Positions 1-35,260 of a stretch of 35,335 nucleotides of DNA are shown here, one piece after another. The DNA comes from a virus (taxonomy: Duplodnaviria; Caudoviricetes): the IMG/VR virus record IMGVR_UViG_3300022719_000275, positions 1-35,335 of that record; one strand, 5' to 3'. Made by a program: the position numbers and the translations under genes. The number at the start of each line of letters is the position of its first letter. The first letter of the stretch is position 1. The notes below the pieces were generated by a model that saw nothing but the letters and a program-made list of their open reading frames with translations, searched no databases and was not told the origin of the DNA.

Positions 1-378
1 ACCTCTTAGATTTGCACCTGTGAGAGTTGCATTTGTGAGATTTGCATCTTGTGAAACTGCACCTGTGAGAGTTGCATTTGTGAGAGTTGCATTTCTTAGA
101 TCTGCACCTCTTAGATCTGCACCTGTGAGAGTTGCATTTGAGAGAGTTGCACCTGTGAGAGTTGCATTTGTGAGAGTTGCATTTGTGAGAGTTGCATTTC
201 TTAGATCTGCACCTCTTAGATCTGCATCTTCCAGATCTGCACCTGTGAGATCTGCACCTGTGAGATTTGCATGTTCTGAAACTGCTTTTTCAAGCGTGTC
301 TCGTATTGTGTTGTCTTCCTGCGTGTGTGAGAATAGTACTTTGTTGTTGAATGCCTTTATTTCGATTTTTGATTTCAT
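1..378 (-). CDS. Pentapeptide-repeat protein, paralog 1 (runs off window edge)
   Basis: Manual translation MKSKIEIKAFNNKVLFSHTQEDNTIRDTLEKAVSEHANLTGADLTGADLEDADLRG...; A(D/N/T)Lxx repeats; N-terminus nearly identical to 836..1576. Confidence 0.9.
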   Translation of the reverse strand, partial: MKSKIEIKAFNNKVLFSHTQEDNTIRDTLEKAVSEHANLTGADLTGADLEDADLRGADLRNATLTNATLTNATLTGATLSNATLTGADLRGADLRNATLTNATLTGAVSQDANLTNATLTGANLRG

Positions 379-395
379 TCTAGTTGTCAGCCTCC
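277..395. repeat. ~119-bp near-identical repeat of 1475..1593 (5' ends of both pentapeptide genes plus junction motif)
   Basis: Direct alignment at offset 1198 with about 5 substitutions. Confidence 0.9.
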
Positions 396-700
396 TCATT
401 TCGGCAGTTTCTGCATAGTCCAGTTGAGTTTTTTCTTCCGCGTGGTGTCATGACTGTGCTGTTCACTGTATCATATAGCAGTTCCCCGACTATTATTGTC
501 ACTATTATTTCCAGGTTGCCAGTTGTTGGTATCTCTACCATGTTCAAATCACTGTAACCGACGTACTCGAACGCCTCGCTAACTTTTCCGTCAACGTCAA
601 AGAAGGAGACGATACCTTTTGTCTTGCTGATTAGTAATTCCTGAGAATGCTGATATATTCTCTTTGTGTCGCCATTTCGGTCTTTTATGATTATTTTCAT
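380..700 (-). CDS. Hypothetical protein ending in half a Zn ribbon (CRNC)
   Basis: ATGA-coupled to the upstream RHH gene; C-terminal STVMTPRGRKNS shared with 35123..35260. Confidence 0.7.
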   Translation of the reverse strand: MKIIIKDRNGDTKRIYQHSQELLISKTKGIVSFFDVDGKVSEAFEYVGYSDLNMVEIPTTGNLEIIVTIIVGELLYDTVNSTVMTPRGRKNSTGLCRNCRNEEADN

Positions 701-834
701 AATACTTCCTCCAGTTTTTCGTTGATTAACCGTGAGAGCGGGCAGTTTTTCTTGCTCTCTGAGATGGTAGCTGCTTGTAGAAGTCTTAGCTTTGCCTCTA
801 TTGAATCATCGAGGTTGATTGTTACCCTGCCCAT
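697..834 (-). CDS. Ribbon-helix-helix-like DNA-binding protein (45 aa)
   Basis: MGRVTINLDDSIEAKLRLLQAA...LSRLINEKLEEVL; ATG at 834 follows the junction motif. Confidence 0.7.
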   Translation of the reverse strand: MGRVTINLDDSIEAKLRLLQAATISESKKNCPLSRLINEKLEEVL

Positions 835-835
835 T

Positions 836-1576
836 CTAGATTTCAGCCTCCAGTACGGAATCAATGAGAACCAACGCGTGTGCTGCAAAGAAGCTGTTTT
901 GTGGCGTATCTCCTTTTCTGATCTGAAAGAACCACTGTTCGCAATAGTTGTGCAGGCCTTTTATGTAAAAGGGAATGCATGAGACTGTTTTCTGTATGCA
1001 TTTTTTGTCGCCTTTTGCCAGGGTTCCAATCAAACAGGCACACTGACCTTCGTATTGTGTTCCATCTATTTGTCCCTTGACTAGTTTTTCCCTCAAAAAT
1101 GGTAGTTCAGTTTTGAGATGTTCAAACACAAACAGCATGTCTCGTGAGCATTGATTGATGTATGACTCTGGAATGTTTTTTGCACCTCCTAGATTTGCAT
1201 ACATTAGATTTGCATACATTAGATTTGCAAACATTAGATTTGCACCTCCTAGATTTGCATACATTAGATTTGCAAACATTAGATTTGCACCTTCTAGATT
1301 TGCACCTGTGAGATCTGCATATGTGAGATCTGCATTTCTTAGATCTGCATTTCTTAGATCTGCATTTCTTAGATCTGCACCTTCTAGATCTGCATACATT
1401 AGATTTGCATCTTCCAGATTTGCATTTCTTAGAGTTGCATATGTGAGATCTGCATATGTGAGATCTGCATCTTGTGAAACTGCTTTTTCAAGTGTGTCTC
1501 GTATTGTGTTGTTTTCTTGTGTGTGTGAGAATAGTACTTTGTTGTTGAATGCCTTTATTTCGATTTTTGATTTCAT
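836..1576 (-). CDS. Pentapeptide-repeat protein, paralog 2, with C-terminal GxCACLIGT domain
   Basis: ADLTY/ANLMY/ADLRN repeats from 15-bp units; start set at MKSKIEIK by identity with paralog 1. Confidence 0.9.
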   Translation of the reverse strand: MKSKIEIKAFNNKVLFSHTQENNTIRDTLEKAVSQDADLTYADLTYATLRNANLEDANLMYADLEGADLRNADLRNADLRNADLTYADLTGANLEGANLMFANLMYANLGGANLMFANLMYANLMYANLGGAKNIPESYINQCSRDMLFVFEHLKTELPFLREKLVKGQIDGTQYEGQCACLIGTLAKGDKKCIQKTVSCIPFYIKGLHNYCEQWFFQIRKGDTPQNSFFAAHALVLIDSVLEAEI

Positions 1577-1577
1577 T

Positions 1578-1829
1578 CTAGTTTTCAGCCTCCGCGAAAT
1601 ATCTTTCCCTAATTTCATCTGCTAAAATACTTGCATTTGCTGTTTTTTTCGCATAGTCGAACTCTTCTGCAAGAGTCAGAAACTTGTCCTCGAAAATTAG
1701 ATCAAGTTTTTCAGTATCAAGTCTCATGTCATATTCGCATATCTCACGAGTCTCTTCTTTGAGTGCTTGAAATTTTTCGATTTGATCGACGATGTGGCCG
1801 TCACCCATTTGGTTTTGTGTTGTATTCAT
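1578..1829 (-). CDS. Hypothetical protein
   Basis: Start MNTTQNQ with upstream GGAGG directly after the preceding stop; ends EAEN* in the junction motif. Confidence 0.65.
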   Translation of the reverse strand: MNTTQNQMGDGHIVDQIEKFQALKEETREICEYDMRLDTEKLDLIFEDKFLTLAEEFDYAKKTANASILADEIRERYFAEAEN

Positions 1830-1830
1830 T

Positions 1831-2214
1831 TTAAAAACTTCCTCCATGTTTTTTCCAGAATTTTTCTTGTTCGTCATGATATTTGTCAACTTCATTACCT
1901 GCAATGCCTTTCATTTTTTGTGCTTGATTTTTGATGTACATTTCAGAAATTTTGTCGAATTTTCTACTTGATTCTAATGTGTTGACTTGTTTTTTTGCAA
2001 CATACATTTTTTCGACTTCGTCTAATGTTTCTTGATATATTTTTTCAAGACCTACTTTTTGTTCTTTTGATAATCGCTTCCATATTGCTAGATTGCTTAG
2101 ATTTTGTCTCATTTTTGAGATGTCATCTTGTCTATTGACTATGCTTTCGACTGAGTCTTTTTGAAGCTTAACGCTAAGGCCGTCACCCATTTTTTTGTTG
2201 AATTGCTTCTCCAT
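1831..2214 (-). CDS. Coiled-coil hypothetical protein, first gene of a leaderless early transcript
   Basis: TATA-like TTATATTAA starts 30 nt upstream of ATG(2214); begins ATGGAGAAGCAA. Confidence 0.7.
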   Translation of the reverse strand: MEKQFNKKMGDGLSVKLQKDSVESIVNRQDDISKMRQNLSNLAIWKRLSKEQKVGLEKIYQETLDEVEKMYVAKKQVNTLESSRKFDKISEMYIKNQAQKMKGIAGNEVDKYHDEQEKFWKKHGGSF

Positions 2215-2235
2215 GATTAACATTATCATACAACC

Positions 2236-2248
2236 TTAATATAAGTAT
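2236..2248 (-). promoter_or_regulatory. Archaeal TATA promoter (early type)
   Basis: ATACTTATATTAA on the minus strand; related boxes at 2908-2916, 3021-3030 and 3151-3160. Confidence 0.65.
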
Positions 2249-2285
2249 CGTTTTTTGTATTTAAAGATGCAAATATGCTTATAAG

Positions 2286-2390
2286 TCAATCATAGAGAAA
2301 TTGACAATCTACGCATGGAAAATGTAGTGTTTTTGCATGGCACCTAGGGCACTTCTTGACAGTTCGATACCAGTTTATCCATGAGCTCAT
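2286..2390 (-). CDS. Zn-finger microprotein (34 aa)
   Basis: MSSWINWYRTVKKCPRCHAKTLHFPCVDCQFLYD; two CxxC motifs; below ORF-track cutoff. Confidence 0.6.
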   Translation of the reverse strand: MSSWINWYRTVKKCPRCHAKTLHFPCVDCQFLYD

Positions 2391-2391
2391 T

Positions 2392-2559
2392 TTAATAATT
2401 GTTGAATTTTTCATTTTTCAGCTCTAAGTATACTCTGCTGAGCTCCTTACCGCAACGCGTACAGACAAATATCTTGACGTCGGTGTTATGTGGGCGTTGC
2501 TCCTCTACGTATTTTTCAGGATGCTTGCAATGATGAAAGTCCGTGACTGTTGGGTTCAT
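2392..2559 (-). CDS. Zn-finger microprotein (55 aa)
   Basis: MNPTVTDFHHCKHPEK...FVCTRCGKELSR; ATGA overlap with the upstream stop. Confidence 0.6.
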   Translation of the reverse strand: MNPTVTDFHHCKHPEKYVEEQRPHNTDVKIFVCTRCGKELSRVYLELKNEKFNNY

Positions 2560-2777
2560 TGTTTATTCTCAACTATTTTTCTATTATCATCCCTGAATGC
2601 TTTCTCAGTTTCCTTGATCAGTGAGAGTAGTTTTAGTCCCAGTGTCGTGGTGGCACCCGTGTCTTTCAAGTCGCCTGCAGTGATTTGGTCTGAGTGATAT
2701 TCCACCGTCGCATCAAACTGCCATGCGCCTTTGGCTGACTGGTGGGCGTTGATTCTGAAACGTGGTTTTTCGTCCAT
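2556..2777 (-). CDS. Hypothetical protein
   Basis: 73-aa ORF abutting neighbours on both sides. Confidence 0.65.
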   Translation of the reverse strand: MDEKPRFRINAHQSAKGAWQFDATVEYHSDQITAGDLKDTGATTTLGLKLLSLIKETEKAFRDDNRKIVENKQ

Positions 2778-2885
2778 CTATTGCGCCCCCATTAGCTGAT
2801 CCAGATAACTGATGTCTTCTTCAATTATCTCTAGTTGTTTTTCTATTTTGGCATCAAGTGCCTTGATTAAATTTTGCTTCTCCAT
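2778..2885 (-). CDS. Small coiled-coil protein (35 aa), leaderless
   Basis: MEKQNLIKALDAKIEKQLEIIEEDISYLDQLMGAQ; TTAATATA box starts 30 nt upstream; begins ATGGAGAAGCAA. Confidence 0.65.
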   Translation of the reverse strand: MEKQNLIKALDAKIEKQLEIIEEDISYLDQLMGAQ

Positions 2886-2914
2886 ACTTATAGTATGAAG
2901 TGTGTACTATATTA

Positions 2915-2939
2915 AGTATTCCCTCCCCTTTGGAATACT
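2915..2939. promoter_or_regulatory. Inverted repeat AGTATTCC-N9-GGAATACT (operator or RNA 3' hairpin)
   Basis: Perfect 8-bp arms abutting the TATA box of the 2885 gene and the 3' end of candidate RNA-1. Confidence 0.5.
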
Positions 2940-2999
2940 AGAGAGGTGGCATGTGCTAGGAGAAGCAACGAAAAATGGTTTTTCGTCATGCCACCCTCT
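2940..2999 (-). ncRNA. Candidate Y-shaped antisense small RNA (RNA-1, ~60 nt)
   Basis: AGAGGGUGGCAUG/CAUGCCACCUCUCU closing stem; inner hairpins ACGAAAA-ACCAU-UUUUCGU and UGCU-UCUCCU-AGCA; own TATA box (3029->3021) predicts a start at the first stem base. Confidence 0.6.
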
Positions 3000-3035
3000 G
3001 CCATATGTTACAATCACTGATAAATATAAGTTATT

Positions 3036-3129
3036 AGGGAAGTTGTAGGTCAGGATCGCTATACCCGCGATCACTGACCGTGCTGGTCATGTTGTATCGC
3101 ATCTGCACGATTCGGGAGGCTCCAAGCCT
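3036..3129 (-). ncRNA. Candidate structured small RNA (RNA-2, ~90 nt)
   Basis: Stems AGGCU/AGCCU, CGUGC/GCACG and GGUCAG-GAUCGC/GCGAUC-CUGACC; TATA-like TTAATTTA starting at 3158 predicts a start at ~3128-3129. Confidence 0.5.
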
Positions 3130-3231
3130 AAATAGTAATATTCTAAGTAATAAATTAAGGTTGCTTCATTTTTCCTTCTTCCAGCCTCACAAGGCTGGAT
3201 ACTGTCATGTGACACGAGTTGTTCTGTTATT

Positions 3232-3624
3232 TCATGCAATTTTAGCTAGAAAGTGAGGTTGAGTCGCATGGTATTTGTGATTCTTGAATTTCAGTCTACC
3301 TTTTATCCAAATAATTTGGTAACCCATGCTGCGTATATTATGAAACCATTCCTGATCGGTCTTGGATGGCAGTAGCATGAATGAGCAACACTTGTTTGCG
3401 TTTGCTTCTGAAATAGCCTTATCCACAAACTGAGGCAGATGAGAATAAGGTGGATTTACATAGTTGTATTTCTTCCACGGTATTTGCAGTCCGTCAAAAT
3501 CGGGATTGAGAGGGCATGGATCAAACATGTCATCTTTTGACAGGCCAAACAGTTGATAAATCATATCGTATACTCGGTCAGGTGTTTCGTGTACGTCTGA
3601 CTTACGCAATGGCATGTAACTCAT
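3232..3624 (-). CDS. Phage-type DNA N6-adenine methyltransferase
   Basis: HETP...FDPCP...DGLQIPW...YVNPPYS...LLPSKTDQEWFH...GRLKF; ATGA-coupled to the MCM stop. Confidence 0.9.
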   Translation of the reverse strand: MSYMPLRKSDVHETPDRVYDMIYQLFGLSKDDMFDPCPLNPDFDGLQIPWKKYNYVNPPYSHLPQFVDKAISEANANKCCSFMLLPSKTDQEWFHNIRSMGYQIIWIKGRLKFKNHKYHATQPHFLAKIA

Positions 3625-5669
3625 TTCTGCCTCCTCAGTTTGCCTACCTTCGGCTCGTACAGCCATCCAGATTTTTTTCTGGAATCAATGTAAGACGATA
3701 TGGAGCGGTCTGTCTTGAAGAATTTCTGGTTTTCCAGCAGCTTTTCGGCAAGCTCATACTCTACAACATCGCCGTCGTCGTCTTCCAGTGCCAGATTTCT
3801 GAATGTCTCCTCAAAGAACTCGTCGCGGTTGATTGATCTGCCTCGCAGGTCAACTTGATGTATTCCATTGGACGTATTCATACCTAATGATTCAAGACAC
3901 TCCTTGTAGAAGTTTAACGCCCTCTGTACTATTAATTCGTCGATTTCCTTGCAGAACAGCAGTTTTGCATATGCCTCGGCGATTCTCTGTATTCCTTCCA
4001 TCTGCCTGGTCTGGATTGGTAGCGCTCCGTCTGGCTGTTCTACCTGTGAAAATTCAACAAACTTGTTGATCAGCATCTCCTCCGCCTCCGGTGTAAATAT
4101 TGGTCGTAACTTTCTCAAATGATTCAGCAGACCTCTCAGCCATTTTGGATCTGCTGCGGGTTCCAGGTCGCCGCGTTTCTGTCGTGCTATATGCTGCATT
4201 TTAGCCCTAATTTGGTTCTCCTGTGTCTCATGTCGTAATCTAATTACTATGTCAAATCTCGTTAGGGTTGAACCGTCGAAGGGGACATTGTCTATGATTG
4301 GGGCATGTTCATTCCAGATTTCATTTGAGGGATTGCATGCAGATATTACCGTGGTCTTTGTTTCTGCATTGCCTACGTGACCGCCCTTGTTGTATGTTGC
4401 TCTTTGCTGCTCCATTGCGATGTTTAGCTTTTTCTGCTCGGATTTTGGCATCTTGTCATGCTCGTCTACTATGAGATGCCCACCCGAGTTCAGTATCATT
4501 GCGCCTGCCCGCAGTATCTTGATTCCATCATATTCATCTAATGCAAACAGCACGCCCACTCCGGTACTGTTAGAACCGTCAATTATGCTAGCTTTTTCTG
4601 CTATCATATTTGTGAATTTGAGCAATTCGGATTTTCCGGTATCGGCCTCAGAAATTAGCATCATATGGGACTCTTTTCTATAACCTACAAAGTTAGAGCC
4701 TCCCAGCAGTGAAAGATATAATGCGAGTTTTTCAAGCCGTCTGCCAAATATCTTCGGGCAAAACGAGTCTATCAGATGATCTAGATACTGAGCTGGTTTC
4801 GTGCTTGCAAATTCATGTGCTATCTGAATTTCATGTGGGGTGAGAGTGATTTCCTGTTTTTCTGCAACATCGGCCACCATTATTGCGTCTATGACTAGAG
4901 ATTTTTCACTTGTTACCTTCTGTCCGCTTACTGGTTCCTGCGCCTGGTAGAATCCGATAATCTTCTTGTTCTGCCCTAATCCGATATTATTAGTGTCATC
5001 GCCATGGAGTATGCATTTGATGACGACCGGGTTGTTGTTTTTTGCACGAGACTCGGGCTCCTGAATCAGGACATTTTGTATATACTTTCCTGTTTGTGTA
5101 TCAAGTTTTTTGGGACTGGGTCCAATTATAACGCATTGAAACGATATGACTGTGCTGAGGTCGGTTTCCCGAAGATCAGACAAGCTGATTTCTGGTATGT
5201 CTACTGTAAGATCTACCTGTATCGCGTTTCGAATGTGATCTGAAAGCATCTTTGCACCCTCATTCATTGAATATTTTGTCACTGCCTGCGAGGGTTCAAA
5301 TCCCTGCAGTCCTGCCCATTTTGTGACCCAATACGTCCATACAGCCTCGTATACTGCGTTTTCTACTCTTGATTTCAAGTCGTGCTTTGCTGCCTGTATG
5401 AATTCAGTATCTGATATTTTAATAGGATAATACTGTTTTAGTATCGTGTCCTTGTGATTTTCATTTAGTAATTTGTCTCGTAGCTCATCCTGATGCCTCG
5501 ATGCTGTCTTGAGATCCTTTTCATGGATTCCTTTGAATAATGTGAGTTCCTGATTGATTATTGTTGAGATTTTTTCCTGTACTGTTACCCCTTGCTTTTC
5601 AAGGTAATGCTTCCAGTCAATATAATCATCTTTTTCTCCAGCGTACTTGAATGATACAGTATCTGACAT
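3621..5669 (-). CDS. mcm: MCM replicative helicase
   Basis: Walker A variant SEADTGKS, Walker B IVDEHDKM, AMEQQ, Arg finger TRFD, sensor-2 TRQMEG; start MSDTV preceded by GGAG. Confidence 0.93.
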   Translation of the reverse strand: MSDTVSFKYAGEKDDYIDWKHYLEKQGVTVQEKISTIINQELTLFKGIHEKDLKTASRHQDELRDKLLNENHKDTILKQYYPIKISDTEFIQAAKHDLKSRVENAVYEAVWTYWVTKWAGLQGFEPSQAVTKYSMNEGAKMLSDHIRNAIQVDLTVDIPEISLSDLRETDLSTVISFQCVIIGPSPKKLDTQTGKYIQNVLIQEPESRAKNNNPVVIKCILHGDDTNNIGLGQNKKIIGFYQAQEPVSGQKVTSEKSLVIDAIMVADVAEKQEITLTPHEIQIAHEFASTKPAQYLDHLIDSFCPKIFGRRLEKLALYLSLLGGSNFVGYRKESHMMLISEADTGKSELLKFTNMIAEKASIIDGSNSTGVGVLFALDEYDGIKILRAGAMILNSGGHLIVDEHDKMPKSEQKKLNIAMEQQRATYNKGGHVGNAETKTTVISACNPSNEIWNEHAPIIDNVPFDGSTLTRFDIVIRLRHETQENQIRAKMQHIARQKRGDLEPAADPKWLRGLLNHLRKLRPIFTPEAEEMLINKFVEFSQVEQPDGALPIQTRQMEGIQRIAEAYAKLLFCKEIDELIVQRALNFYKECLESLGMNTSNGIHQVDLRGRSINRDEFFEETFRNLALEDDDGDVVEYELAEKLLENQKFFKTDRSISSYIDSRKKSGWLYEPKVGKLRRQK

Positions 5670-5800
5670 AATATTACTCCTGACCAGCTGACAAGCTGAC
5701 AAGCTTACCGCTTTTATTTTCTTTTTTCAAACATCGTACTATCATATGTAAACCCTTACAGATCTTGACATTCTCAATATAGTCATCATAACCTTAATTA

Positions 5801-5824
5801 TCACTTCCATGTTTGCTTCTCCAT
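5801..5824 (-). CDS. Candidate leader mini-ORF MEKQTWK upstream of MCM
   Basis: ATGGAGAAGCAAACATGGAAGTGA; TATA-like TAATAAAG starts 28 nt upstream. Confidence 0.4.
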   Translation of the reverse strand: MEKQTWK

Positions 5825-5919
5825 TATCATAATAATAATAGTGTCTTTATTAGTTTTTTGTTTTCATTCAAGTGGCTCCATGGATGAATGAGCGTTTTCT
5901 CTCTATTGATTTAGTGTTA

Positions 5920-6075
5920 CTATTTTTTGTCATGATTATTGGGGACTGACACAGTTCCTTCCTTTTTTGTATTCATCTCCCCACTTACTACCATCCGGAT
6001 GGCTTCTAATTGCCTCCACAGCGAGAGGTATTCATATTGATCCGAGAGTCGAAAGTCAGCGTGTTTTTTGATCAC
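5920..6075 (-). CDS. Hypothetical protein (51 aa)
   Basis: GTGA overlap with the upstream stop; MIKKHADFRLSDQYEYLSLWRQLEAIRM... Confidence 0.45.
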   Translation of the reverse strand: MIKKHADFRLSDQYEYLSLWRQLEAIRMVVSGEMNTKKEGTVSVPNNHDKK

Positions 6076-6344
6076 TTTCTCATTGCCTCCGTGTTCCAAA
6101 CTGTTGCTGCATTAGCGATTGCCTGCTCGGCTCCGTGTTCCTTGCAGAGCTTGATGAATGCCTCTGTCATTATTATAGCACGTTTCTTTCTTTCCATCAA
6201 ATCGTCTATTGATTTGCCTTGCTGTGTTGCCTGACAGTTTTCGCCTGATATGCACCAGTTGTCATTCTTGTTCTTGTTGATCTCGTCACCAATATTGATT
6301 TTTTTGCCGCAGTCCTTGCAGATGTTTTCATATTTTGATTTCAA
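6072..6344 (-). CDS. Zn-finger protein
   Basis: CKDCGKKINIGDEI...WCISGENC; GAGGGTGA SD-like element upstream. Confidence 0.7.
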   Translation of the reverse strand: MKSKYENICKDCGKKINIGDEINKNKNDNWCISGENCQATQQGKSIDDLMERKKRAIIMTEAFIKLCKEHGAEQAIANAATVWNTEAMRK

Positions 6345-6361
6345 TTTGCTTCTTCACCCTC

Positions 6362-6859
6362 TTATGAAAAATCGTCAAGCGGACTGACACCATTGTCCTC
6401 CTCAAAGCATTCTATGAATCCCTCGACATTGGTGTCTGCATCCAATGTGATGACTTCTAGTTTGATCACCTGGCCAGCATCTACCTTGTGTCCAATGTTT
6501 GAAAATTCGTATGAGAATACCTGCATTCCTGCATCGAATGTAGACTCCATGGTCAGTGTCGATTTTGCAGTTTCTACTATCGTGCCGTTTACTTTCAAGA
6601 CAACCGCATCTGCAACTGATTGTGTATTACTGTTATTCAGAAAAAAGATGACTTTGGCACGAGCCAGATACATGTCTTTTGCCGTGTTTGCTGTAAGTGT
6701 AGCTAGATCACCAGTGGCAGAGAGAGATCCATCATCATGTCTGAGCTTGCCAAGGAATTCCTTTGTGGAAAGAAATAAAATATCAGACATTAATAACCCC
6801 GACGTGACCAGGTTCCCTGAAACGGGGATTGTATATGATTCTAGAACAGGAAATATCAT
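6362..6859 (-). CDS. Hypothetical beta-rich protein (possible virion component)
   Basis: 165-aa ORF, beta-strand-rich, ATGA-coupled. Confidence 0.65.
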   Translation of the reverse strand: MIFPVLESYTIPVSGNLVTSGLLMSDILFLSTKEFLGKLRHDDGSLSATGDLATLTANTAKDMYLARAKVIFFLNNSNTQSVADAVVLKVNGTIVETAKSTLTMESTFDAGMQVFSYEFSNIGHKVDAGQVIKLEVITLDADTNVEGFIECFEEDNGVSPLDDFS

Positions 6860-7011
6860 CCATTACTTTTCTCCTGCTTTAAATGTGAAATTGTCTTGTT
6901 TAATTCCTCTATAATTTTATTCTTATTATCCAGTTCGTTTTGTAGTTTTTCTTTTTCTAGCTGTTTTGAAATCATATAATTGTGCAAGCCTTGCCAGTCT
7001 AGCTGATACAT
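6856..7011 (-). CDS. Small coiled-coil protein (51 aa)
   Basis: MYQLDWQGLHNYMISKQLEKEKLQNELDNKNKIIEELNK...; stop overlaps the next ATG. Confidence 0.5.
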   Translation of the reverse strand: MYQLDWQGLHNYMISKQLEKEKLQNELDNKNKIIEELNKTISHLKQEKSNG

Positions 7012-7035
7012 TATACAATAAAAAGAAGGGTTTGG

Positions 7036-7479
7036 TTAATAATGTTTTTCATGAGTCCAGAATCCAAGTTTTTTGGTATCCTCAGCTGATGCGATGTCTA
7101 CACTGTAATATGCATGAGATTCAAAGTTATGATCAACCAACAGGGGTATTGCTAGATATCCATTTTGTGTTGTTGTATAGTTTTGTGTGATTATCGCAGT
7201 TGCAATATTGTCTTGGACTAGTGATATTGTCACTGTTACGTTTGCATATGGTACCTTGTACCTGTCACCATATTTGCATTCAGGATTCATGCTCTCACTG
7301 CAGATATTGACAAATATCGTAGTCTCGTTCTGCTTCCATGCATTTGAATTCATCCATGCCGAAATAGAGGGGGTTTTGTCATTAGGGTTATAGATTTTTG
7401 CCTCTGCCATCACGAATGCTGTAGTTACAGAAAGCCAGAGCAAGACGATTATCGCAGTTGCCGATAGAAGCTTCTCCAT
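7036..7479 (-). CDS. Secreted or membrane-anchored beta-rich protein
   Basis: Hydrophobic N-terminus LLSATAIIVLLWLSVTTAFVMA; several N-x-T sequons; own TATA box and downstream oligo-U. Confidence 0.75.
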   Translation of the reverse strand: MEKLLSATAIIVLLWLSVTTAFVMAEAKIYNPNDKTPSISAWMNSNAWKQNETTIFVNICSESMNPECKYGDRYKVPYANVTVTISLVQDNIATAIITQNYTTTQNGYLAIPLLVDHNFESHAYYSVDIASAEDTKKLGFWTHEKHY

Positions 7480-7615
7480 ATAATTTGAATGTGGGTGATT
7501 TTATAAATAGTTTTATGGGGTCTGATTTAGCAGGTTTGATTATCTATGATTTCGCGAACGCGGGTATAACATACTCCGTGCCCAGATGTTTTATGATTAT
7601 ATATGTATCTGGGCT
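7458..7615. repeat. 158-bp exact direct repeat, copy 1
   Basis: Identical to 8302..8459 (offset 844). Confidence 0.95.
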
Positions 7616-7657
7616 CATCATTACTGTGTTCCTTTTTTGGTGATATCATTTCAGGTG

Positions 7658-7843
7658 TCAATCTACAAAACTCCTTTCTTCGCAGCATCTGCCACAAAAT
7701 CTTCTATCGAGTCCTACGCCTGTTTTTAATACATACCAAGAACCACCACACCAAGAATGACCTAATAATAGACAAACTAATTTACAATATGAGTTGGATA
7801 TTATCTTACCACAAAGTTTACAAAAATTACTACCCATATACAT
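7658..7843 (-). CDS. Cys-rich Zn-finger microprotein (cargo cassette)
   Basis: CKLC...CLLLGHSW...RFCGRC. Confidence 0.6.
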   Translation of the reverse strand: MYMGSNFCKLCGKIISNSYCKLVCLLLGHSWCGGSWYVLKTGVGLDRRFCGRCCEERSFVD

Positions 7844-8076
7844 TAAACATTATCACCCTTTTGTTTAGTACATTTTTTTGGAGTTATTAGTAAACCATTT
7901 GCACAATCAAAACATAATGTGGGGTGTCCTCCTTTGTTAGAACAACCTTTTTCAATTTTAATCCATCCTAAAGATTTTTTACATTCCCAACATTTACAAA
8001 GTTCATATTTTGCCATAACGCTTTCAGGTAATCCCGTCAAAGGTTTTCTAATCTTCTTTTTATCCAATAGTTTCAA
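7843..8076 (-). CDS. Zn-finger microprotein (cargo cassette)
   Basis: CWEC...CFDC; GGAGGT SD upstream of the TTG start. Confidence 0.65.
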   Translation of the reverse strand: MKLLDKKKIRKPLTGLPESVMAKYELCKCWECKKSLGWIKIEKGCSNKGGHPTLCFDCANGLLITPKKCTKQKGDNV

Positions 8077-8219
8077 AATGTCATACCTCCATGCCTAGCA
8101 GTCGCACACCCCTTACTAATTCGTCTGTGTGTTTTTCTAGGTGCTATCACACTCGGTTCAGGGCTTAAACTCGTGAAGGTATGACTATAAAATAATAAAC
8201 AATTGTTATCTACTTTCAA
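8073..8219 (-). CDS. Hypothetical microprotein (48 aa, cargo cassette)
   Basis: TTGA overlaps at both ends; GGGAGG SD upstream. Confidence 0.4.
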   Translation of the reverse strand: MKVDNNCLLFYSHTFTSLSPEPSVIAPRKTHRRISKGCATARHGGMTF

Positions 8220-8323
8220 TTTGAAGCCTCCCAATCATGGACAGAGTCTAAGGACACTTTGAGATAGTCTGCAGTAACTGTAGGTTTTGAGTGTCTAAGT
8301 TTTGCCGATAGAAGCTTCTCCAT
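8216..8323 (-). CDS. Chimeric 35-aa ORF (first 7 codons of the 7036..7479 gene fused to insert sequence)
   Basis: MEKLLSA|KLRHSKPTVTADYLKVSLDSVHDWEASN; the fusion point is the repeat boundary. Confidence 0.5.
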   Translation of the reverse strand: MEKLLSAKLRHSKPTVTADYLKVSLDSVHDWEASN

Positions 8324-8459
8324 ATAATTTGAATGTGGGTGATTTTATAAATAGTTTTATGGGGTCTGATTTAGCAGGTTTGATTATCTATGATTTCGCG
8401 AACGCGGGTATAACATACTCCGTGCCCAGATGTTTTATGATTATATATGTATCTGGGCT
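8302..8459. repeat. 158-bp exact direct repeat, copy 2
   Basis: Contains the tail-fibre 3' end, a TATA promoter (AAAACTATTTATAAA) and the MEKLLSA start. Confidence 0.95.
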
Positions 8460-10580
8460 GGCAGGTACATTGTTTGCCAGACCCGCGGCGCCAACGGTGG
8501 ATTGACCTGTGGGAAAATCAACGGTAAGTCCTGATGATTTGAATACAATATCTGTTGCCACATCACCGTTTATATTCACGTCGTCGGTACTAGCGTTTCC
8601 CAATGATACGTTGCCTTCTATTATTGCATTACCATCGACCTGGAGCACATTCGTTAGATCGAGTGATGTAGCCCAGATCGTGCCCCACCTTGCAGTCTCT
8701 TTCCCAATTAACTGTGATGAACTGTTGGCGATAAAGTTTGCATTTGTTTCAAGTTCGTCTGATGTGTTGACTTTAATCAGAAGGTTTGCTGAGTCTGCTG
8801 CATTTCTCCACCTGATTGAGGCGTCGTTGATCAAACGTAGTGCCCCGGCATCTGCTTCTGTTCCATTTTGTCGTAATGAGTTGAAATTGGTAATTGAATT
8901 GTTGTCCATGTTCAAATCACTGTCTGCCACTGCGTTGAATGTTATCGTATCAGTTGAAAGTGCTCCAAGATTGACATCGTTGTCTATATTGAATGATGTT
9001 GCCGTGACGTTGAACTGTTGTATATTGTCGACTTTTCCGACGATGTTCCCTGCACCGACGTCTGTGATTGTTACTTCCGTGTCGGCAATCTTGATTTGAG
9101 ATGCTATGCCCCACTTGACTCCAGGTGACGCTGCTGTGTCAGCTAGCAGTACCTGTCCATCAGCTCCAACAGGGATTCGTGCATCAGCAGTATCATAACC
9201 AAACAGATCGCCTTTCGTAGTAAGTGGGGAGCCCGCGGAGCCTATATCTGAGAGATTTTTCACCATGCCACCTGTGTGAACCTTGACGTCAGTTCCATTT
9301 ACAGTGAATATTCCATCGGCAACAGGATCAGTTGACGAGTTAGAAATTAAAACAGTATTGGATGCGACATAATTAGCACCTGTGAGGGTTCCTGGACTCA
9401 TAGTCCATTTTTGGACATTATTTTCGGTAAATGTCCATTCGTAGCCTGTTGGCACGTTGAACACTAGTTTTGTGTCAGATGAATTGACTGCTATGTTGAC
9501 GTCAGTTGCACTTGTACCTGTATTCGATATGAACATCGCCCTGTCTATATTTGTCAAATCATTGAGATTCATGTCGATGTTTTCTGGTACTTTGTTACTT
9601 GCTGACAAGTTGCTCAAGTCAGTCCGCAGAAAACCAAAGTTGGTTGTACCTGAGACCACCTCTACAACATCATATGTAGTGCCTCCGTCATTCGTCCTGA
9701 AAACATAGACTCCTCTGTCATCCTGATCAAGCGTTATGGTTGATAATTGTCGGACTTCTGCGGGAAGCGTCACAGTAAATGTAGATCCAGTTCCGTCTTG
9801 TTGCAGTTCCAGCTCAAATGTCATCTGTGTACCGGAACTTGGCGGGTTTGAGAAAGTAAGCGTAAGGTCTGCATCGACTGTAAACTTGTGTACGTGTCCG
9901 TCTGTGGTACTGAGGTCGATTGCAACTGGTGATGTCCAGGTGTCAGAATAATCTGTGATACGTGGTGTAAGTGGAAACGATGCTGTTGCGGTACCGCCTG
10001 TTATTGATTTTGCATATAGTATTGACCATCCTCCGTTGTTTCCGTTTGGGCTCAAAGTCACATCATACTGTAATTCTACCACTATCGGGTCAAATGAGGT
10101 TGTTATCACGAGGTCTGTACTGTCCCCTGAAACTATGTTACCGCCTGCATTATTTGAATAGTCCTCAAGCGTAAGGGTGGATGCTCCCGGTACCTGCAGC
10201 CACAATTTTTGTCCGGAAAACTGTGCCCCTTTGATTAGCTGAATCTTGTCTGGTGATGAAAATGACGCTATGACATATGAGGAACTTTGGTGATTTGACG
10301 TCGCGCCAACTGATATGTCAAGCTCGTCTGAGCCAGTAATTGATACTGTCGCTGGATAGAAAGCTATTGGGCCTACCATCGTGTCGCCTTTTGTCTTAAG
10401 AAAATTTCCCTGGGAGGATTGCGTTCCCCCGGCTGAGCCACCTAGGTTGCCGAGTGGGGCGTTTGAGTATGCTGCAGGTGTTCTTCGTATCCTTCCAAGC
10501 GAGTATAGCTCTGACTGCTTTCGTATCGCGTTTCGTAGCCTGTCAGTGGTGGTTGCAACCTTCTTTGCCTTTTGGGTCAT
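8388..10580 (-). CDS. Tail fibre / receptor-binding protein
   Basis: G/S/T/D/N-rich modular protein; fibre-type motifs LKTKGDTMVG and LTTKGDLFGY...IPVGADGQVL; last gene of the tail block. Confidence 0.75.
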   Translation of the reverse strand: MTQKAKKVATTTDRLRNAIRKQSELYSLGRIRRTPAAYSNAPLGNLGGSAGGTQSSQGNFLKTKGDTMVGPIAFYPATVSITGSDELDISVGATSNHQSSSYVIASFSSPDKIQLIKGAQFSGQKLWLQVPGASTLTLEDYSNNAGGNIVSGDSTDLVITTSFDPIVVELQYDVTLSPNGNNGGWSILYAKSITGGTATASFPLTPRITDYSDTWTSPVAIDLSTTDGHVHKFTVDADLTLTFSNPPSSGTQMTFELELQQDGTGSTFTVTLPAEVRQLSTITLDQDDRGVYVFRTNDGGTTYDVVEVVSGTTNFGFLRTDLSNLSASNKVPENIDMNLNDLTNIDRAMFISNTGTSATDVNIAVNSSDTKLVFNVPTGYEWTFTENNVQKWTMSPGTLTGANYVASNTVLISNSSTDPVADGIFTVNGTDVKVHTGGMVKNLSDIGSAGSPLTTKGDLFGYDTADARIPVGADGQVLLADTAASPGVKWGIASQIKIADTEVTITDVGAGNIVGKVDNIQQFNVTATSFNIDNDVNLGALSTDTITFNAVADSDLNMDNNSITNFNSLRQNGTEADAGALRLINDASIRWRNAADSANLLIKVNTSDELETNANFIANSSSQLIGKETARWGTIWATSLDLTNVLQVDGNAIIEGNVSLGNASTDDVNINGDVATDIVFKSSGLTVDFPTGQSTVGAAGLANNVPASPDTYIIIKHLGTEYVIPAFAKS

Positions 10581-13222
10581 GATAGCCTGTCAACTCCAAG
10601 TATTTTTCGTATGAATCCAGAGGCAGTACTACCTGACTTGTCTATTGTGTATTCTATTTCCTTGGCGACTAGTTCTACCGTATTTGATGCACCGTCTGAA
10701 TCATTGACGATGCGGTCGTTTTTGACCTTGAATGACTCGAAAAGATTGATGTCAAAGCGACCCTCAGTTACTATTGTATAGCGCTTGTGCCGGAACTGGT
10801 TTTCTTCAAGCCTTGCGAGGTTAGCCTGATCATTCTGATATCTGTTGATTATCAGCGGTTCCTCGTCAAAGTCGGTAAACATCGCTCTTCCGGTTGTAAC
10901 GGGGTCTGATACTGACAATAGAGGCTTCACAAAATGAAACGCATCTATACTCCAGGTGATGTTGAATCCGTCATTGAACAGGCCTGTTATGACGTCTTCC
11001 AGATTAGGAAATATTGTACCAAACGCATTAAACAGTAATGTATATCTGCCCTCATCGTCGTATGGTGCCATCCATTGCAATCCTATCTTTTTGATGTTAG
11101 TATAGTCAAACCGCTGCAATATTTCAAGTCCGTTAAGAAATACATTGCTTCCTGAATTTTCCAGACTCCACGGAATTCTTGCCCTGTACTCGTTGAATGC
11201 CGAAAACGGTATAGTTATCTCCTCCCAGTTGTCATTATGTGAAATTGTAAAGTCAGCTATTACAACATTATCGTTTAGATCATACATGTAGCATCTGCAT
11301 GGAATGTTGCCTGCTCGTACAAGACTTCCCGAGCCATCTTTTGCAGACGTCCACTTAAATTTTGTCATGAAGCGAATTGCATCAAGCGGGCCTAGCTCGT
11401 CAGCCTGATCATGGTTGAATCCCCTTCTTGAGTTTGGAGCGTAGTCCATGTTGTTTGTGTCAAACGTCGCAGGTTCTCTTACCGTACTGCTTGAGCCATA
11501 TTTTACACCCATTGTAGCTAAATTGAATCCATTTGGTGGAAAAGGAGCCTTTAGATTTATGCATGCCCCGGCTCTGTAATACGTACGTGACGATAATGAA
11601 GTTACGTCGTTCTGCGAATAGCGATATTCGTAAGTTACTGCCGAATTAGTTCCAAAATCACCGCCACCAGCCATTGTTTTGTTGTTGTGTCCTGCGGTAT
11701 TCGTAATAGAATAAACTGGATGATAAGCATCGTTTGCCTCGTCGTTGCCGGAGTCATCTGCCCATGTCCCGCCAGATTTTTTGTAGACCTTTGCCTCATC
11801 ATCAATGCAGACATACTCGTCATTGCTAGTACTGCGAAACAGTCGCCACTCCCCATTGTCAGCGTCATATTCTACTATATCATTGTCAAAGCCTGCAAAG
11901 TCTCCCGTACCCGTACCGTTTACCAGTACGCGAAATCCTCGTGGCGGAGTTGTTCCGGCATATAGGTAGTCTGCGTTAATTCCCGCCGGACTGGTACCTT
12001 GGGTGTCAACCCACGTGCGAAAGAACGTGCCGTCATAGACTACCTGATTCATGTCCCAGGTGTAGATAGAGTTTGCATCCGGCGGATCATCGGACTGGTC
12101 GCCGTCAGGATTTGCTCCTGAATTTTCCCAGCCTTCTGCAAACGCGTTTGTCCAGGGGGAATAGACACCAGTACCGCCCATCTCATTGATCTCAAACGTG
12201 GTAAACGTGTAAGAGTCCCAGTCAGTGTTATTTGTCTCAGAAGTTGGTGGTGCCGAGCTTGTCTCCTTGTTTGACTTGAAGTGTAGCTCGTCGCCTTCTG
12301 AATCAGGGCCGGTGTTTCTTCTTCTTACTATGCTTCCAGAGGGATAGGTCTCACCAGGTACATAATCTGGCATTGCTGCCCATGCTGTCAGTGCATCCCG
12401 GAACTGCCCAACTCTTGCAGGAAGCGTTCCGAATCCATCGCCCCCCCATGTGGCCTGAATTGTCGCTCGCGTGGACTCTATCCCACCTTCCTCCTCCCCG
12501 GGGTTGACATCAACTGCATCAACTATGGTGACACTTGAATCAATACCGCCTGATTTGACAGCATAAAATTTGATGTCAGTTTCATTGGCAACATTACGGT
12601 TGAAGCCATACTCCCAGAAATCTCCTCCGCCTCCGGCAGCAACTGAAGAGCCAACTCTGTCTACAACATAGCGCAGTCCGTCATAGACTGCCATGGGTGA
12701 AATCGAAAACGGATAATGGTTTGCAGTATATTTTGGAAGTGTGTTTGCAGTTGTGTTGTGTCCCGATACTGAAGGTTGCAGGGATGCCTTTTCGTTATTG
12801 TAGATGTCTATCATGTCCTTGCTAACCTGGTAGGCAGATAGTGCCCTTTCTCTCCTTCTTGATTCCAGAACGAATTTAAAACGCATCAAATGCTGTTCAG
12901 GTCCAAGGCATTCTATGTCAAGTACTGTTCCACGCTGTACTGTGTCTGTTTGTCTCAAGTGATCAACCTCGTAGTTTGCAGTGAATGTTGTTGAGTCCTC
13001 GTCTGTGACTGATACCTGTATGACATCAAACTCATCCAAAATCGGGGTGTCACCACTGGAACTGTTAGTCATGAATTGGCCGTCCTGCCCGTCGAGTGTG
13101 ATTGTGCAGCTTCGAATTTCGCCAGATCCGGATTCCTTGAATTTTATTGTCTGTACATAATCGGAGATATCTGTTGCGGTACCATTTGGGTCGTATGTGA
13201 CAGTGTAAGAGTACTCAGTCAT
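10577..13222 (-). CDS. Large tail / baseplate-hub-like protein
   Basis: 881 aa; hub-like termini (DISDYV..IKFKE; VAKEIEYTI) with beta-rich inserts; position in the tail block. Confidence 0.65.
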   Translation of the reverse strand: MTEYSYTVTYDPNGTATDISDYVQTIKFKESGSGEIRSCTITLDGQDGQFMTNSSSGDTPILDEFDVIQVSVTDEDSTTFTANYEVDHLRQTDTVQRGTVLDIECLGPEQHLMRFKFVLESRRRERALSAYQVSKDMIDIYNNEKASLQPSVSGHNTTANTLPKYTANHYPFSISPMAVYDGLRYVVDRVGSSVAAGGGGDFWEYGFNRNVANETDIKFYAVKSGGIDSSVTIVDAVDVNPGEEEGGIESTRATIQATWGGDGFGTLPARVGQFRDALTAWAAMPDYVPGETYPSGSIVRRRNTGPDSEGDELHFKSNKETSSAPPTSETNNTDWDSYTFTTFEINEMGGTGVYSPWTNAFAEGWENSGANPDGDQSDDPPDANSIYTWDMNQVVYDGTFFRTWVDTQGTSPAGINADYLYAGTTPPRGFRVLVNGTGTGDFAGFDNDIVEYDADNGEWRLFRSTSNDEYVCIDDEAKVYKKSGGTWADDSGNDEANDAYHPVYSITNTAGHNNKTMAGGGDFGTNSAVTYEYRYSQNDVTSLSSRTYYRAGACINLKAPFPPNGFNLATMGVKYGSSSTVREPATFDTNNMDYAPNSRRGFNHDQADELGPLDAIRFMTKFKWTSAKDGSGSLVRAGNIPCRCYMYDLNDNVVIADFTISHNDNWEEITIPFSAFNEYRARIPWSLENSGSNVFLNGLEILQRFDYTNIKKIGLQWMAPYDDEGRYTLLFNAFGTIFPNLEDVITGLFNDGFNITWSIDAFHFVKPLLSVSDPVTTGRAMFTDFDEEPLIINRYQNDQANLARLEENQFRHKRYTIVTEGRFDINLFESFKVKNDRIVNDSDGASNTVELVAKEIEYTIDKSGSTASGFIRKILGVDRLS

Positions 13223-16465: not shown

Positions 16466-17641
16466 CTAGAAGCTAGTCACTTTGTATGCACCATTCTCAT
16501 CTGCCTCTTTCACGTCGAATCTAATTACTAGATCAGAGTCATAGAGACCTCCAACGGTCATGTCATAGTTTTCTATTGTCAGGTCTTCTCGAAGTCCAAC
16601 CACCTGTGCTACGTCACGTATTGTAATCATGACGGTGTTCTCAGTCATCTGTGGTGTTTCCCAAACGTTTTTGAGCCCAAGGGCTGCTGCCAAGCCTGAG
16701 TTGTTTACAACGTCAGAGTTGGAATCTTCCCTGAGTATTCTCTTGTCCAGGAATGGGTATGAACCGGATGCGCCAGTGGATTTGGCTGCAATTTGATAAG
16801 CGTCAGCTGGATGGATAAACATCGTGTCAGCAGTATTTCTTTGACTTCCTGGGAACTTTGAACGAATTACGTTCATCAAGCCTTCCAATTCACTGTGAAT
16901 TGGAGTTGCAAAGTCTAGGTCCGCAAGTGTATCGGTGTTGGTTGCAGTGTCGGCGATCATCTGGTCAAGAATTCTTTTTCCTGCGAGATAGTAGTACAAG
17001 TTGCCAGCGTTTTTCAGTGGCTGTTCTACTGCCATGAAGTTATTGTCCTTGACGTCGTTTCTCTCGACTCTAATGGTACCTCGGAATGAGTTCTTTGTAT
17101 TGCTACAATCGAGCTCGATTGGCTCCATCTTGCCGCCAATCACGGGTGGCTTTCCGCCTGCTTCCTTGAAGATATTGATAGAGTCAGCGTTTTCGCCTCC
17201 GACTTGATTTGTATATCGAGTCTTAGGTACGTTGACCTTAGGTGCATCCATATCGATCAGCCTAGAATATTGTTTCCAGTCAGACCATGGTTCTGCACCC
17301 TCGATTATCTCGTCGGAAATTTTTAGGATTGACAATGTGTTTGGAACGCTTACGGTTTCTCGTACTGCGTGTCCACCTTTTGATGCATAATCTCCGATAC
17401 GAATGCCATACATCTCGTGCCAAATTCGCGGGAGATTTGGGTTCATTCGCATCTTGTCCATGGAGCCGTCAGCCTTGTCAAAGAATACCTTGAGTGGCGT
17501 TTCTCGGATTGGTTTCCAGAAGTTCCATGTTCTTCCGACTTGCTGATATGCCTCTGCTGCGTCGTTTAGTGCCTCACGTATTCCAGTGAATTCATCAGAT
17601 TCAAGAAGAATGCTGCGGTTAACTTTTTCACCAGTAGCCAT
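16466..17641 (-). CDS. Major capsid protein (HK97 fold inferred)
   Basis: 391 aa after scaffold and cement genes; ADTMFIHP, REDLTIENY...VIRFDVK C-terminal pattern. Confidence 0.85.
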   Translation of the reverse strand: MATGEKVNRSILLESDEFTGIREALNDAAEAYQQVGRTWNFWKPIRETPLKVFFDKADGSMDKMRMNPNLPRIWHEMYGIRIGDYASKGGHAVRETVSVPNTLSILKISDEIIEGAEPWSDWKQYSRLIDMDAPKVNVPKTRYTNQVGGENADSINIFKEAGGKPPVIGGKMEPIELDCSNTKNSFRGTIRVERNDVKDNNFMAVEQPLKNAGNLYYYLAGKRILDQMIADTATNTDTLADLDFATPIHSELEGLMNVIRSKFPGSQRNTADTMFIHPADAYQIAAKSTGASGSYPFLDKRILREDSNSDVVNNSGLAAALGLKNVWETPQMTENTVMITIRDVAQVVGLREDLTIENYDMTVGGLYDSDLVIRFDVKEADENGAYKVTSF

Positions 17642-34987: not shown

Positions 34988-35121
34988 GATTCATCCCTCA
35001 TTTGATTGAAACTCTGTACTATGATATATTCTATCTGCTTTTTTCTGCTTCTGCCTTCTAGTTGTGCAGTTTCTTCTATTTTTCTGACGGTGTCAGCCTC
35101 AAGATCTATGTTGATTTTCAT
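34984..35121 (-). CDS. Ribbon-helix-helix-like protein (45 aa)
   Basis: MKINIDLEADTVRKIEETAQLEGRSRKKQIEYII. Confidence 0.7.
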   Translation of the reverse strand: MKINIDLEADTVRKIEETAQLEGRSRKKQIEYIIVQSFNQMRDES

Positions 35122-35122
35122 T

Positions 35123-35260
35123 CTAGATTTCAGCCTCCAGTACGGAATCAATGAGAACCAACCTTGAGTTTTTTCTTCCGCGTGGTGTCATGACCGTGCT
35201 TGTCACTTTATCGCATCTCATACAGTGAAATCTGACTCGTTGTCCTTCGTACCAGTTCAT
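35123..35260 (-). CDS. Chimeric 45-aa ORF (half Zn ribbon plus pentapeptide-gene C-terminus)
   Basis: MNWYEGQRVRFHCMRCDKVTSTVMTPRGRKNS-R-LVLIDSVLEAEI; 35164..35200 matches 424..460 (1 mismatch) and 35119..35162 equals 832..875. Confidence 0.65.
   Translation of the reverse strand: MNWYEGQRVRFHCMRCDKVTSTVMTPRGRKNSRLVLIDSVLEAEI

Follow-up and report, generated by a model that had tools for sequence, protein, structure and literature searches.

A candidate 60-nt antisense RNA complementary to the first codons of early genes in a tailed virus with a probable archaeal host

A 60-nt element in a tailed-virus genome folds into a stable three-way junction and carries the complement of a word found at the first codons of several of the virus's own genes. 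From these features we lean towards reading it as a trans-acting antisense small RNA that would block leaderless early mRNAs. The window, meaning the whole stretch of DNA analysed, is the entire viral record of 35,335 nt, and its long ORFs lie on the minus strand. Scans of 31 and 30 window proteins found a terminase large subunit, an MCM helicase and a Dam-type methylase, and no integrase. Because the nearest named relative of the MCM is that of Nitrososphaeria virus YSH_922147 (62%), the host is probably an ammonia-oxidising archaeon. Contigs of the probable source run, which is not independent of the window, match it over the element. The features of the element and its surroundings are as follows.

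2940 to 2999, minus strand: candidate 60-nt small RNA, a three-way junction (-27.9 kcal/mol, z -6.63)
3021 to 3029, minus strand: TATA-like box TTATATTTA of the candidate RNA gene, 30 nt before A2999, putatively active
2959 to 2968, minus strand: main antisense word UUGCUUCUCC, RNA positions 32-41, with UCUCC unpaired in a 6-nt loop
2968 to 2978, minus strand: second element CCAUUUUUCGU, made of the CCA loop and the 3' side of the 8-bp arm
2915 to 2939, no strand assigned: perfect 8-bp inverted repeat with a 9-nt spacer, folding as a separate hairpin
2908 to 2915, minus strand: TATA-like box of gene 2885, which reads TATA-like on the plus strand too

The initial annotation had drawn a three-way junction closed by a 13-bp stem with one bulge, and folding of the minus strand from 2999 to 2940 bore this out, at an energy and z-score reached by none of 200 shuffles (a wider stretch, 2935-3005, gave z -5.99). 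The bulged base of the closing stem is a U. Two arms stand on that stem, one of 8 bp capped by CCA and one of 4 bp capped by UCUCCU; of the 10-mer UUGCUUCUCC only UCUCC sits in a loop and the remaining five bases are paired. The element was the strongest non-coding fold in a structure scan of the window, and ranked second of 547 z-scored candidates, taken from the 32,143 non-coding sense-strand windows that the window and 95 MCM-family loci provide. The scan missed a hairpin in record G001 (see below) that was masked by an opposite-strand ORF; such scans can therefore overlook elements elsewhere. Rfam gave no match at gathering score anywhere in the window and, in a search of positions 1-9000, nothing over the element at E<=5, and no tRNA was found at the element. 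Two ORFs that overlap it, 3004-2912 (30 codons) and 3074-2907 (55 codons), were not taken as genes, the former because its ATG at 3004 lies upstream of the predicted start at 2999. The candidate RNA does not end in a U-tract; the second hairpin, 2939-2915, comes next, abutting the 3' side of the junction and, at its other end, the 2885 TATA box. This inverted repeat is a candidate 3' hairpin of the RNA or a candidate protein operator.

All coordinates and words quoted by the initial annotation are present in the sequence, and the spacing of its proposed promoter was confirmed: the same 30-nt offset separates a TATA-like box from A2999, from ATG 2214 (TTATATTA, at 2244) and from ATG 2885 (TTAATATA, at 2915). 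The minus-strand box thus predicts a start exactly at the first base of the element's stem. Since all pairs of the element are Watson-Crick, both strands fold (the plus strand at -27.2 kcal/mol, z -4.95), and its strand was assigned by the promoter alone. The plus strand could be the transcript, either as a decoy RNA showing AGGAGA in a loop and titrating a protein that reads the word, or as a 20-codon ORF from ATG 2975 held sequestered. Its fold agrees with this idea, as does the 2908-2915 box, whose plus-strand reading is TATATTAA, some 30 nt ahead of 2940; that box, however, is already accounted for as promoter of 2885, the genome has its long ORFs on the minus strand, the start predicted by the minus-strand box falls precisely on the stem, and no candidate RNA-binding protein was seen among the window proteins scanned. 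We consider a plus-strand transcript very unlikely. Further hairpins lie upstream of the RNA promoter on the minus strand (3232-3030), with z -2.2 and -1.1.

The sites that the element could recognise, with predicted net pairing energies, are listed here.

2874 to 2883, minus strand: target word in ORF 2885-2778 (35 codons), at +3 to +12; net -11.6 kcal/mol
2203 to 2212, minus strand: target word in ORF 2214-1831 (127 aa), at +3 to +12, with a TATA-like box at 2244-2237
2187 to 2194, minus strand: AAAAATGG, a further site in the 2214 mRNA; net -8.3 kcal/mol for bipartite pairing
5813 to 5822, minus strand: target word in the 7-codon ORF 5824-5801; net -11.8 kcal/mol, the best site in the genome
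5674 to 5824, minus strand: chain of overlapping mini-ORFs of 7, 22 and 23 codons, putatively translated
3621 to 5669, minus strand: MCM helicase gene (Pfam MCM, 5.8e-37), putative downstream target of the 5824 leader
7470 to 7477, minus strand: 8-nt target word in ORF 7479 (147 aa), at +3; net -8.0 kcal/mol
8314 to 8321, minus strand: duplicate 8-nt target word in ORF 8323 (35 aa), at +3; net -8.9 kcal/mol
6346 to 6353, minus strand: AGAAGCAA before TTG 6344; outside the 12 best sites by energy
2766 to 2773, minus strand: ACGAAAAA in gene 2777, at +5 of the gene
715 to 724, minus strand: CAACGAAAAA, complementary to RNA positions 25-34 over 10 nt and lying 23 nt ahead of ATG 700

The coding strand holds three copies of GGAGAAGCAA (2212, 2883 and 5822) where 0.08-0.17 would be expected, each preceded by AT and thus at +3 of an ATG; the single copy on the other strand (2959) lies inside the element. 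The complementarity to starts 2214, 2885 and 5824 that had been claimed is therefore upheld, although the word at 5824 opens an ORF of only 7 codons. ORF 2885 is the first of a coupled run, 2885-2777-2559. TATA spacing suggests that 2214 has a leaderless start; the gene also has in-frame ATGs upstream, at 2229 and 2223. Its protein (127 aa) yielded no homologue, and Atlas matches at 0.90 showed low recognition and were set aside. The word at 5813-5822 is placed also as a ribosome-binding site, 12 nt before ATG 5810. ORF 5824 (7 codons) overlaps 5810 (22 codons), which overlaps 5745 (23 codons), and the chain stops 4 nt before the MCM start at 5669; it shows no insertion or deletion in a source-run contig. 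Both 8-nt starts, 7479 and 8323, were present as described, but they lie within one 158-nt duplication of 100% identity and so count once. The copies, 7458-7615 and 8302-8459, comprise the end of the tail-fibre-like gene 10580, a promoter and a start. Altogether the genome holds six 10-nt complements of the element, four of them at starts; ranked by energy, the one at 715-724 is not among the top 12 sites. RNA positions 13-24 recur exactly as the 12-mer 2774-2763.

Matches of this kind were compared with chance on a curated set of 50 starts from which 5824 and 8323 were left out. Three curated start regions (2885, 2214 and the site 23 nt before 700) contain 10-nt complements, a score matched by 5 of 3,000 shuffles and, among 3,528 genomic 60-mers, by four, each of which overlaps the element. 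Complements of 8 nt occur at 8/50 starts, equalled by 5/3,528 60-mers and 5/3,000 shuffles, and structure-preserving shuffles attain the 8-nt and 10-nt counts in 7/5,000 cases each. At 9 nt the excess on curated starts is weak (55/3,528 60-mers and 48/3,000 shuffles do as well). With automated starts, 8 of 52 were matched at 8 nt (0/2,000 shuffles), two at 9 nt (59/2,000) and two at 10 nt (3/2,000). The excess over shuffled controls at 8 and 10 nt, for which the initial annotation had proposed a comparison, was thus found at p ~0.001-0.002. Met-Glu-Lys starts are common enough in relatives (34/2,181), and many words were examined after the fact, so that a fortuitous match within a terminator-like hairpin has to be weighed; besides the controls, however, the GAG-AAG-C spelling is fixed in the window even though GAA and AAA are its commoner codons (559 vs 449 and 542 vs 408). 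Coincidence of this sort strikes us as extremely improbable. Nor are MEKQ starts equally frequent in relatives lacking the RNA: none was found among 2,181 ORF starts of MCM-family relatives without the element, and ATGGAGAAG stood at two of these 2,181. The complementary word at these starts exceeds chance, and the feature is real and non-random.

Pairing energies were estimated by a seed-and-extend calculation that charges the opening of both RNAs. Opening RNA positions 33-41, the small arm, is predicted to cost 4.0 kcal/mol, and the whole 20-nt core 9.9 kcal/mol; cofolding without loop-loop pairs gained 0 to -2.1 kcal/mol. The strongest sites were 5822 (-11.8 kcal/mol), 2883 (-11.6), a coding site at 11228 (-9.1), 8321 (-8.9) and 2212 (-8.3). 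Start regions supplied four of the top six and six of the top ten sites, levels reached by 1/55 and 0/55 control RNAs, in a ranking that is partly circular, 5824 and 8323 being counted as starts. Predicted binding is modest, at about -12 kcal/mol, and a best site as strong as -11.8 was found in 6 of the 55 control RNAs.

The element had been described as a two-loop RNA with bipartite targets. The 2214 message does contain both elements, and it is the only one to have them in full; its bipartite site (-8.3 kcal/mol) is predicted to be weaker than the single sites at 5824 (-11.8) and 2885 (-11.6). As a targeting element the CCA-loop word looks weak: AAAAATGG occurs at its expected frequency (4 on the coding strand vs 2.2-4.1 expected) and adds no binding energy. 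The second element CCAUUUUUCGU complements 2187-2194, 2766-2773 and, with neighbouring bases, 715-724. Within 2214, AAAAATGG runs into an MGDG-coding stretch that recurs close to the start of gene 1829 and to that of a gene in the related record G005. One seed loop would be enough for the data, with the CCA arm at most an auxiliary contact. The MGDG stretch, ATGGGTGACGG, is a shared 5' cassette: three early genes that are otherwise unlike carry it about 22-25 nt past their starts (window 2190 and 1808, minus strand; G005 41729, minus strand).

From the observed fold, promoter-like spacing and complementary starts we propose a mechanism in which a candidate RNA of 60-90 nt would be transcribed, on the minus strand, from its own TATA promoter at 3029. 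Its exposed UCUCC loop would pair in the cell with GGAGA at +3 to +7 of target messages, and the weak 4-bp arm could then unzip to give an 8-10 bp duplex across the first codons. The small subunit would then be unable to load on the leaderless message. Such a route suits what is described for archaea: GeneMarkS-2 placed 11 of 11 Thaumarchaeota genomes in a leaderless-rich group with a box ~26 nt from the start (excerpts of PMC6028130), and in archaea the 30S subunit binds the 5' end of a leaderless mRNA directly (excerpts of PMC11698992). Predicted targets for repression are the 2885-2777-2559 run, 2214, 7479/8323 and, via the mini-ORF chain, MCM. The MCM-coupled chain, entered through the 7-codon ORF 5824, would be the most consequential of these, and the RNA may thus damp replication and early functions. 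It might serve timing, copy control or immunity, the initial annotation having suggested immunity or a lytic/latent switch.

The element might instead act in cis, as a structured leader, attenuator or terminator of a transcript reading into 2885 or of MCM-Dam read-through, pairing with the 2883 word in the manner of the P4 leader. On the element's own strand the 2883 word follows 76 nt further downstream, and there are partial matches on the upstream side, at 3174-3160; U-rich tracts follow the analogous hairpins of L159 and G008 (below), L159 has a matching site just upstream of its hairpin, and P4 CI RNA pairs with sites on both sides of itself (excerpts of PMC4825925). Yet when 2999-2850 is folded as one chain the junction stays intact and the 2883 word is largely free, 2885 has a TATA box of its own, and the sites at 2212, 5822 and 7477 are out of cis reach. 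Cis action is in our judgement improbable; it is also compatible with the trans-acting explanation, the two not being exclusive. A 4-codon ORF at 3169 contains 8-nt matches to both RNA elements in reversed order.

Relatives were then compared for the element and its word. The exact 20-nt core had no match in viral contigs. Two looser patterns hit at least 119 loci each (41 and 47 of 64 parts), and among the matches listed none folds into the junction; the 238 loci listed were put down to chance, as none showed the fold and no more than two had any protein similarity to the window. Neither these loci nor related records contained a homologue of the element, and the target word is absent from the sense strand of the MCM-family loci (14 close viral, 80 metagenome, 1 genome). 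Analogues were sought by scanning 61 records for non-coding windows that both fold and read antisense to several starts, and those described here were chosen after the fact. The scan recovered the element and two others, in G002 and L159, besides weaker or low-complexity ones.

Record G002 (capsid protein 83%) has a stem-loop at ~1014-1056 carrying GTTCATTTCCAA, complementary to a GGAAATGA word at six TATA-led starts. The hairpin is antisense to 6/61 starts at 9 nt (0/2,000 shuffles), with a fold z of only -2.7. Its inverted word could also be a plus/minus promoter copy, since a weak box is suitably spaced from it on the opposite strand. Record G008, 73% identical to G002 on average over 13.6 kb, keeps the stem and the 12-nt word unchanged while the remainder of the loop differs; it has fewer matches itself, one of 10 nt at 17580 and one of 8 nt at 3475. 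L159, whose MCM has the same length and identity as the YSH_922147 protein, has a hairpin of -24.5 kcal/mol (z -6.7) adjoining an integrase-like gene, and there TCATTTCTT matches AAGAAATGA at four gene starts. This hairpin is antisense to 6/50 starts at 9 nt (4/2,000 shuffles), with no excess at 10 nt (113/2,000). Integrase-like genes scored above the cut-off in L400 and under it in L159.

Record G005 (terminase 73%) has ATGGAGAGTCAA at three TATA-led starts and no structured antisense copy of that word in its 42.5 kb. A predicted complement hairpin failed there, the one full complement being a plus-strand gene start. The record is linear, without an end repeat, and both its ends fall in the early region. 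G002 and G008 are in line with loop and word being kept together in relatives; the word of G005, standing without a hairpin in its linear record, comes near to a refuting condition named in the initial annotation.

G005 also bears on a different account, in which the start word is a mark on DNA, or one read by a protein, spread by duplication of promoter-plus-start cassettes, and the element is a DNA site or relic. The 158-nt duplication behind 7479/8323 is such a cassette event; in G005, where no antisense hairpin was found, the related word occupies three promoters, on both strands, and in its longer form resembles the plus-strand reading of the element core. The element also folds as single-stranded DNA (z -8.09 and -7.54), inverted repeats flank promoters in the window (2915-2939) and in G005, and a weak RHH-like gene lies at 35121 (E 0.013, under the Pfam cut-off). 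Against such a mark, the word is non-palindromic and single at each site, and its inverted copy, which has no ATG and no TATA box at the matching distance, falls where the strongest non-coding fold of the genome has its loop and its weakest arm. Moreover, G002 and G008 retain the inverted word in a hairpin across 73% divergence, and the missing G005 hairpin concerns a linear record with both ends in the early region. We judge a DNA-level mark rather unlikely. The reading as an antisense RNA on early-gene 5' ends is favoured by the genome-wide controls, the absence of MEKQ starts in relatives and the G002, G008 and L159 pairs, with the hairpin-free word of G005 on the other side.

The six hairpins align poorly (45% column identity) and are treated as analogues, not as established homologues. 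G001 (21979-21925, minus strand; L400:10290-10355) has a hairpin of -28.6 kcal/mol with an 11-nt loop and no clear targets, just downstream of its homologue of gene 2777, a family with 98 members at E<=0.001. Synteny with this family was considered as a link between the hairpins and rejected, as the genes beside the G002 and G008 hairpins are not members; no comparable hairpin lies beside the 2777-family members of G007 or L159. A closing-stem pattern found only the G001, G002 and G008 types in 121 records, and misses the window's own stem. Record G003, which has no MCM or 2777 match, has one weak candidate hairpin. Rfam identified a tRNA gene in this close relative (L410:2544-2612).

Tentatively, and as a possibility that we hold well short of the trans-acting reading itself, Nitrososphaeria tailed viruses may make a family of short anti-start RNAs of their own: each virus would mark a set of leaderless or near-leaderless early messages with a 5' word and encode a hairpin whose loop fits it (GGAGAAG here, GGAAAUG in G002 and G008, AAGAAAUGA in L159). 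Word and loop would change together and define immunity groups, and the RNA would gate MCM through the 7-codon leader ORF.

Among known systems, the C4 RNA of P1/P7 is likewise a small multi-stem viral RNA whose single-stranded parts pair with translation starts and whose target specificity resides in a variable loop (excerpts of PMC5320573). The element shares three stems with unpaired recognition elements; geometry and size differ (~77 nt for C4 vs 60 nt), and the element does not match the C4 Rfam model. Whereas the C4 5' end arises by RNase P processing and C4 targets a Shine-Dalgarno region, the element has a predicted primary 5' end set by a TATA box and would target several probably leaderless 5' ends in separate operons (excerpts of PMC5320573). 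CI RNA of P4 is also a structured early-region RNA with complementary sites on either side, which damps replication genes; unlike the element, whose best sites are at +3, it is processed from a leader and acts by premature transcription termination (excerpts of PMC4825925). The element's candidate CI-type flanking sites are 2883 downstream (10 nt) and, on the upstream side, no more than 8-nt pieces, at 3174 and 3167, which stand in the reverse order. C4 itself has two separate elements, a' and b', for bipartite targets and a role in superinfection immunity and lysogeny; here a complete bipartite site occurs only in 2214. By analogy, the element would function like C4 or CI and is not a member of either family.

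The earlier view that archaeal tailed viruses offer no precedent needs narrowing. The Tant antisense RNA of halovirus phiH is cis-encoded and contributes to immunity (excerpts of PMC4284463 and PMC6210493), and the asRNAs of HFTV1 are cis-encoded (excerpts of PMC12542753 and bioRxiv 10.64898/2026.09.13.751334). Like the proposed RNA they belong to an archaeal tailed virus and control early genes by antisense pairing, but they come from the strand opposite their target and are fully complementary to it, whereas the element is intergenic, lies on its targets' strand and would act in trans, on several messages, through matches of 8-10 nt. What stood of the claim concerns trans action: searches of open-licence PMC and bioRxiv articles turned up neither a trans-acting sRNA from an archaeal virus nor one directed at leaderless 5' ends, and the main text of a Nitrososphaeria virus survey contains neither 'antisense' nor 'small RNA' (bioRxiv 10.1101/2025.08.23.671958). 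The archaeal sRNA162 of Methanosarcina mazei does act in trans, masking a translation start by short pairing; it is cellular and uses an unstructured linker against an internal ribosome-binding site, whereas the element is viral, loop-seeded and directed at first codons (PMC3510493). If real, one 60-nt RNA would switch a set of archaeal virus early genes, the helicase included, and leaderless messages, which have no leader to mask, would prove repressible through their first codons. The 10-nt word and the 6-nt loop form a testable pair, with natural variants in G002/G008 and L159.

Several other features were observed in passing. The repeat GGTAAGCTTGTCAGCTTG lies just upstream of the MCM start (window 5675-5710, minus strand) and is kept, with differing flanks, in L156:2148-2207, L159:9970-9997, L105, L108 and L150; it is a candidate origin or operator, and a similar repeat is the top non-coding fold in L133. 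Stretches at gene junctions are repeated within the window (316-395, 832-900, 1514-1593 and 35100-35200) around two pentapeptide-repeat genes and two small RHH-like ORFs, which suggests cassette duplication across the record's ends. A second contig in run X1 shares window 1800-1829 and then continues into a different TATA-bearing upstream stretch; it would be a co-occurring variant in which gene 1829 is leaderless and gene 2214 absent. L161 is an MCM-family virus contig in a genome labelled Woesearchaeota, and possibly mis-binned. L400:17528-19897 (G001), in a virus with an integrase, holds a four-gene cluster with a weak RAMP match (E 0.0074, under the cut-off), which we take to resemble a type IV CRISPR csf module.
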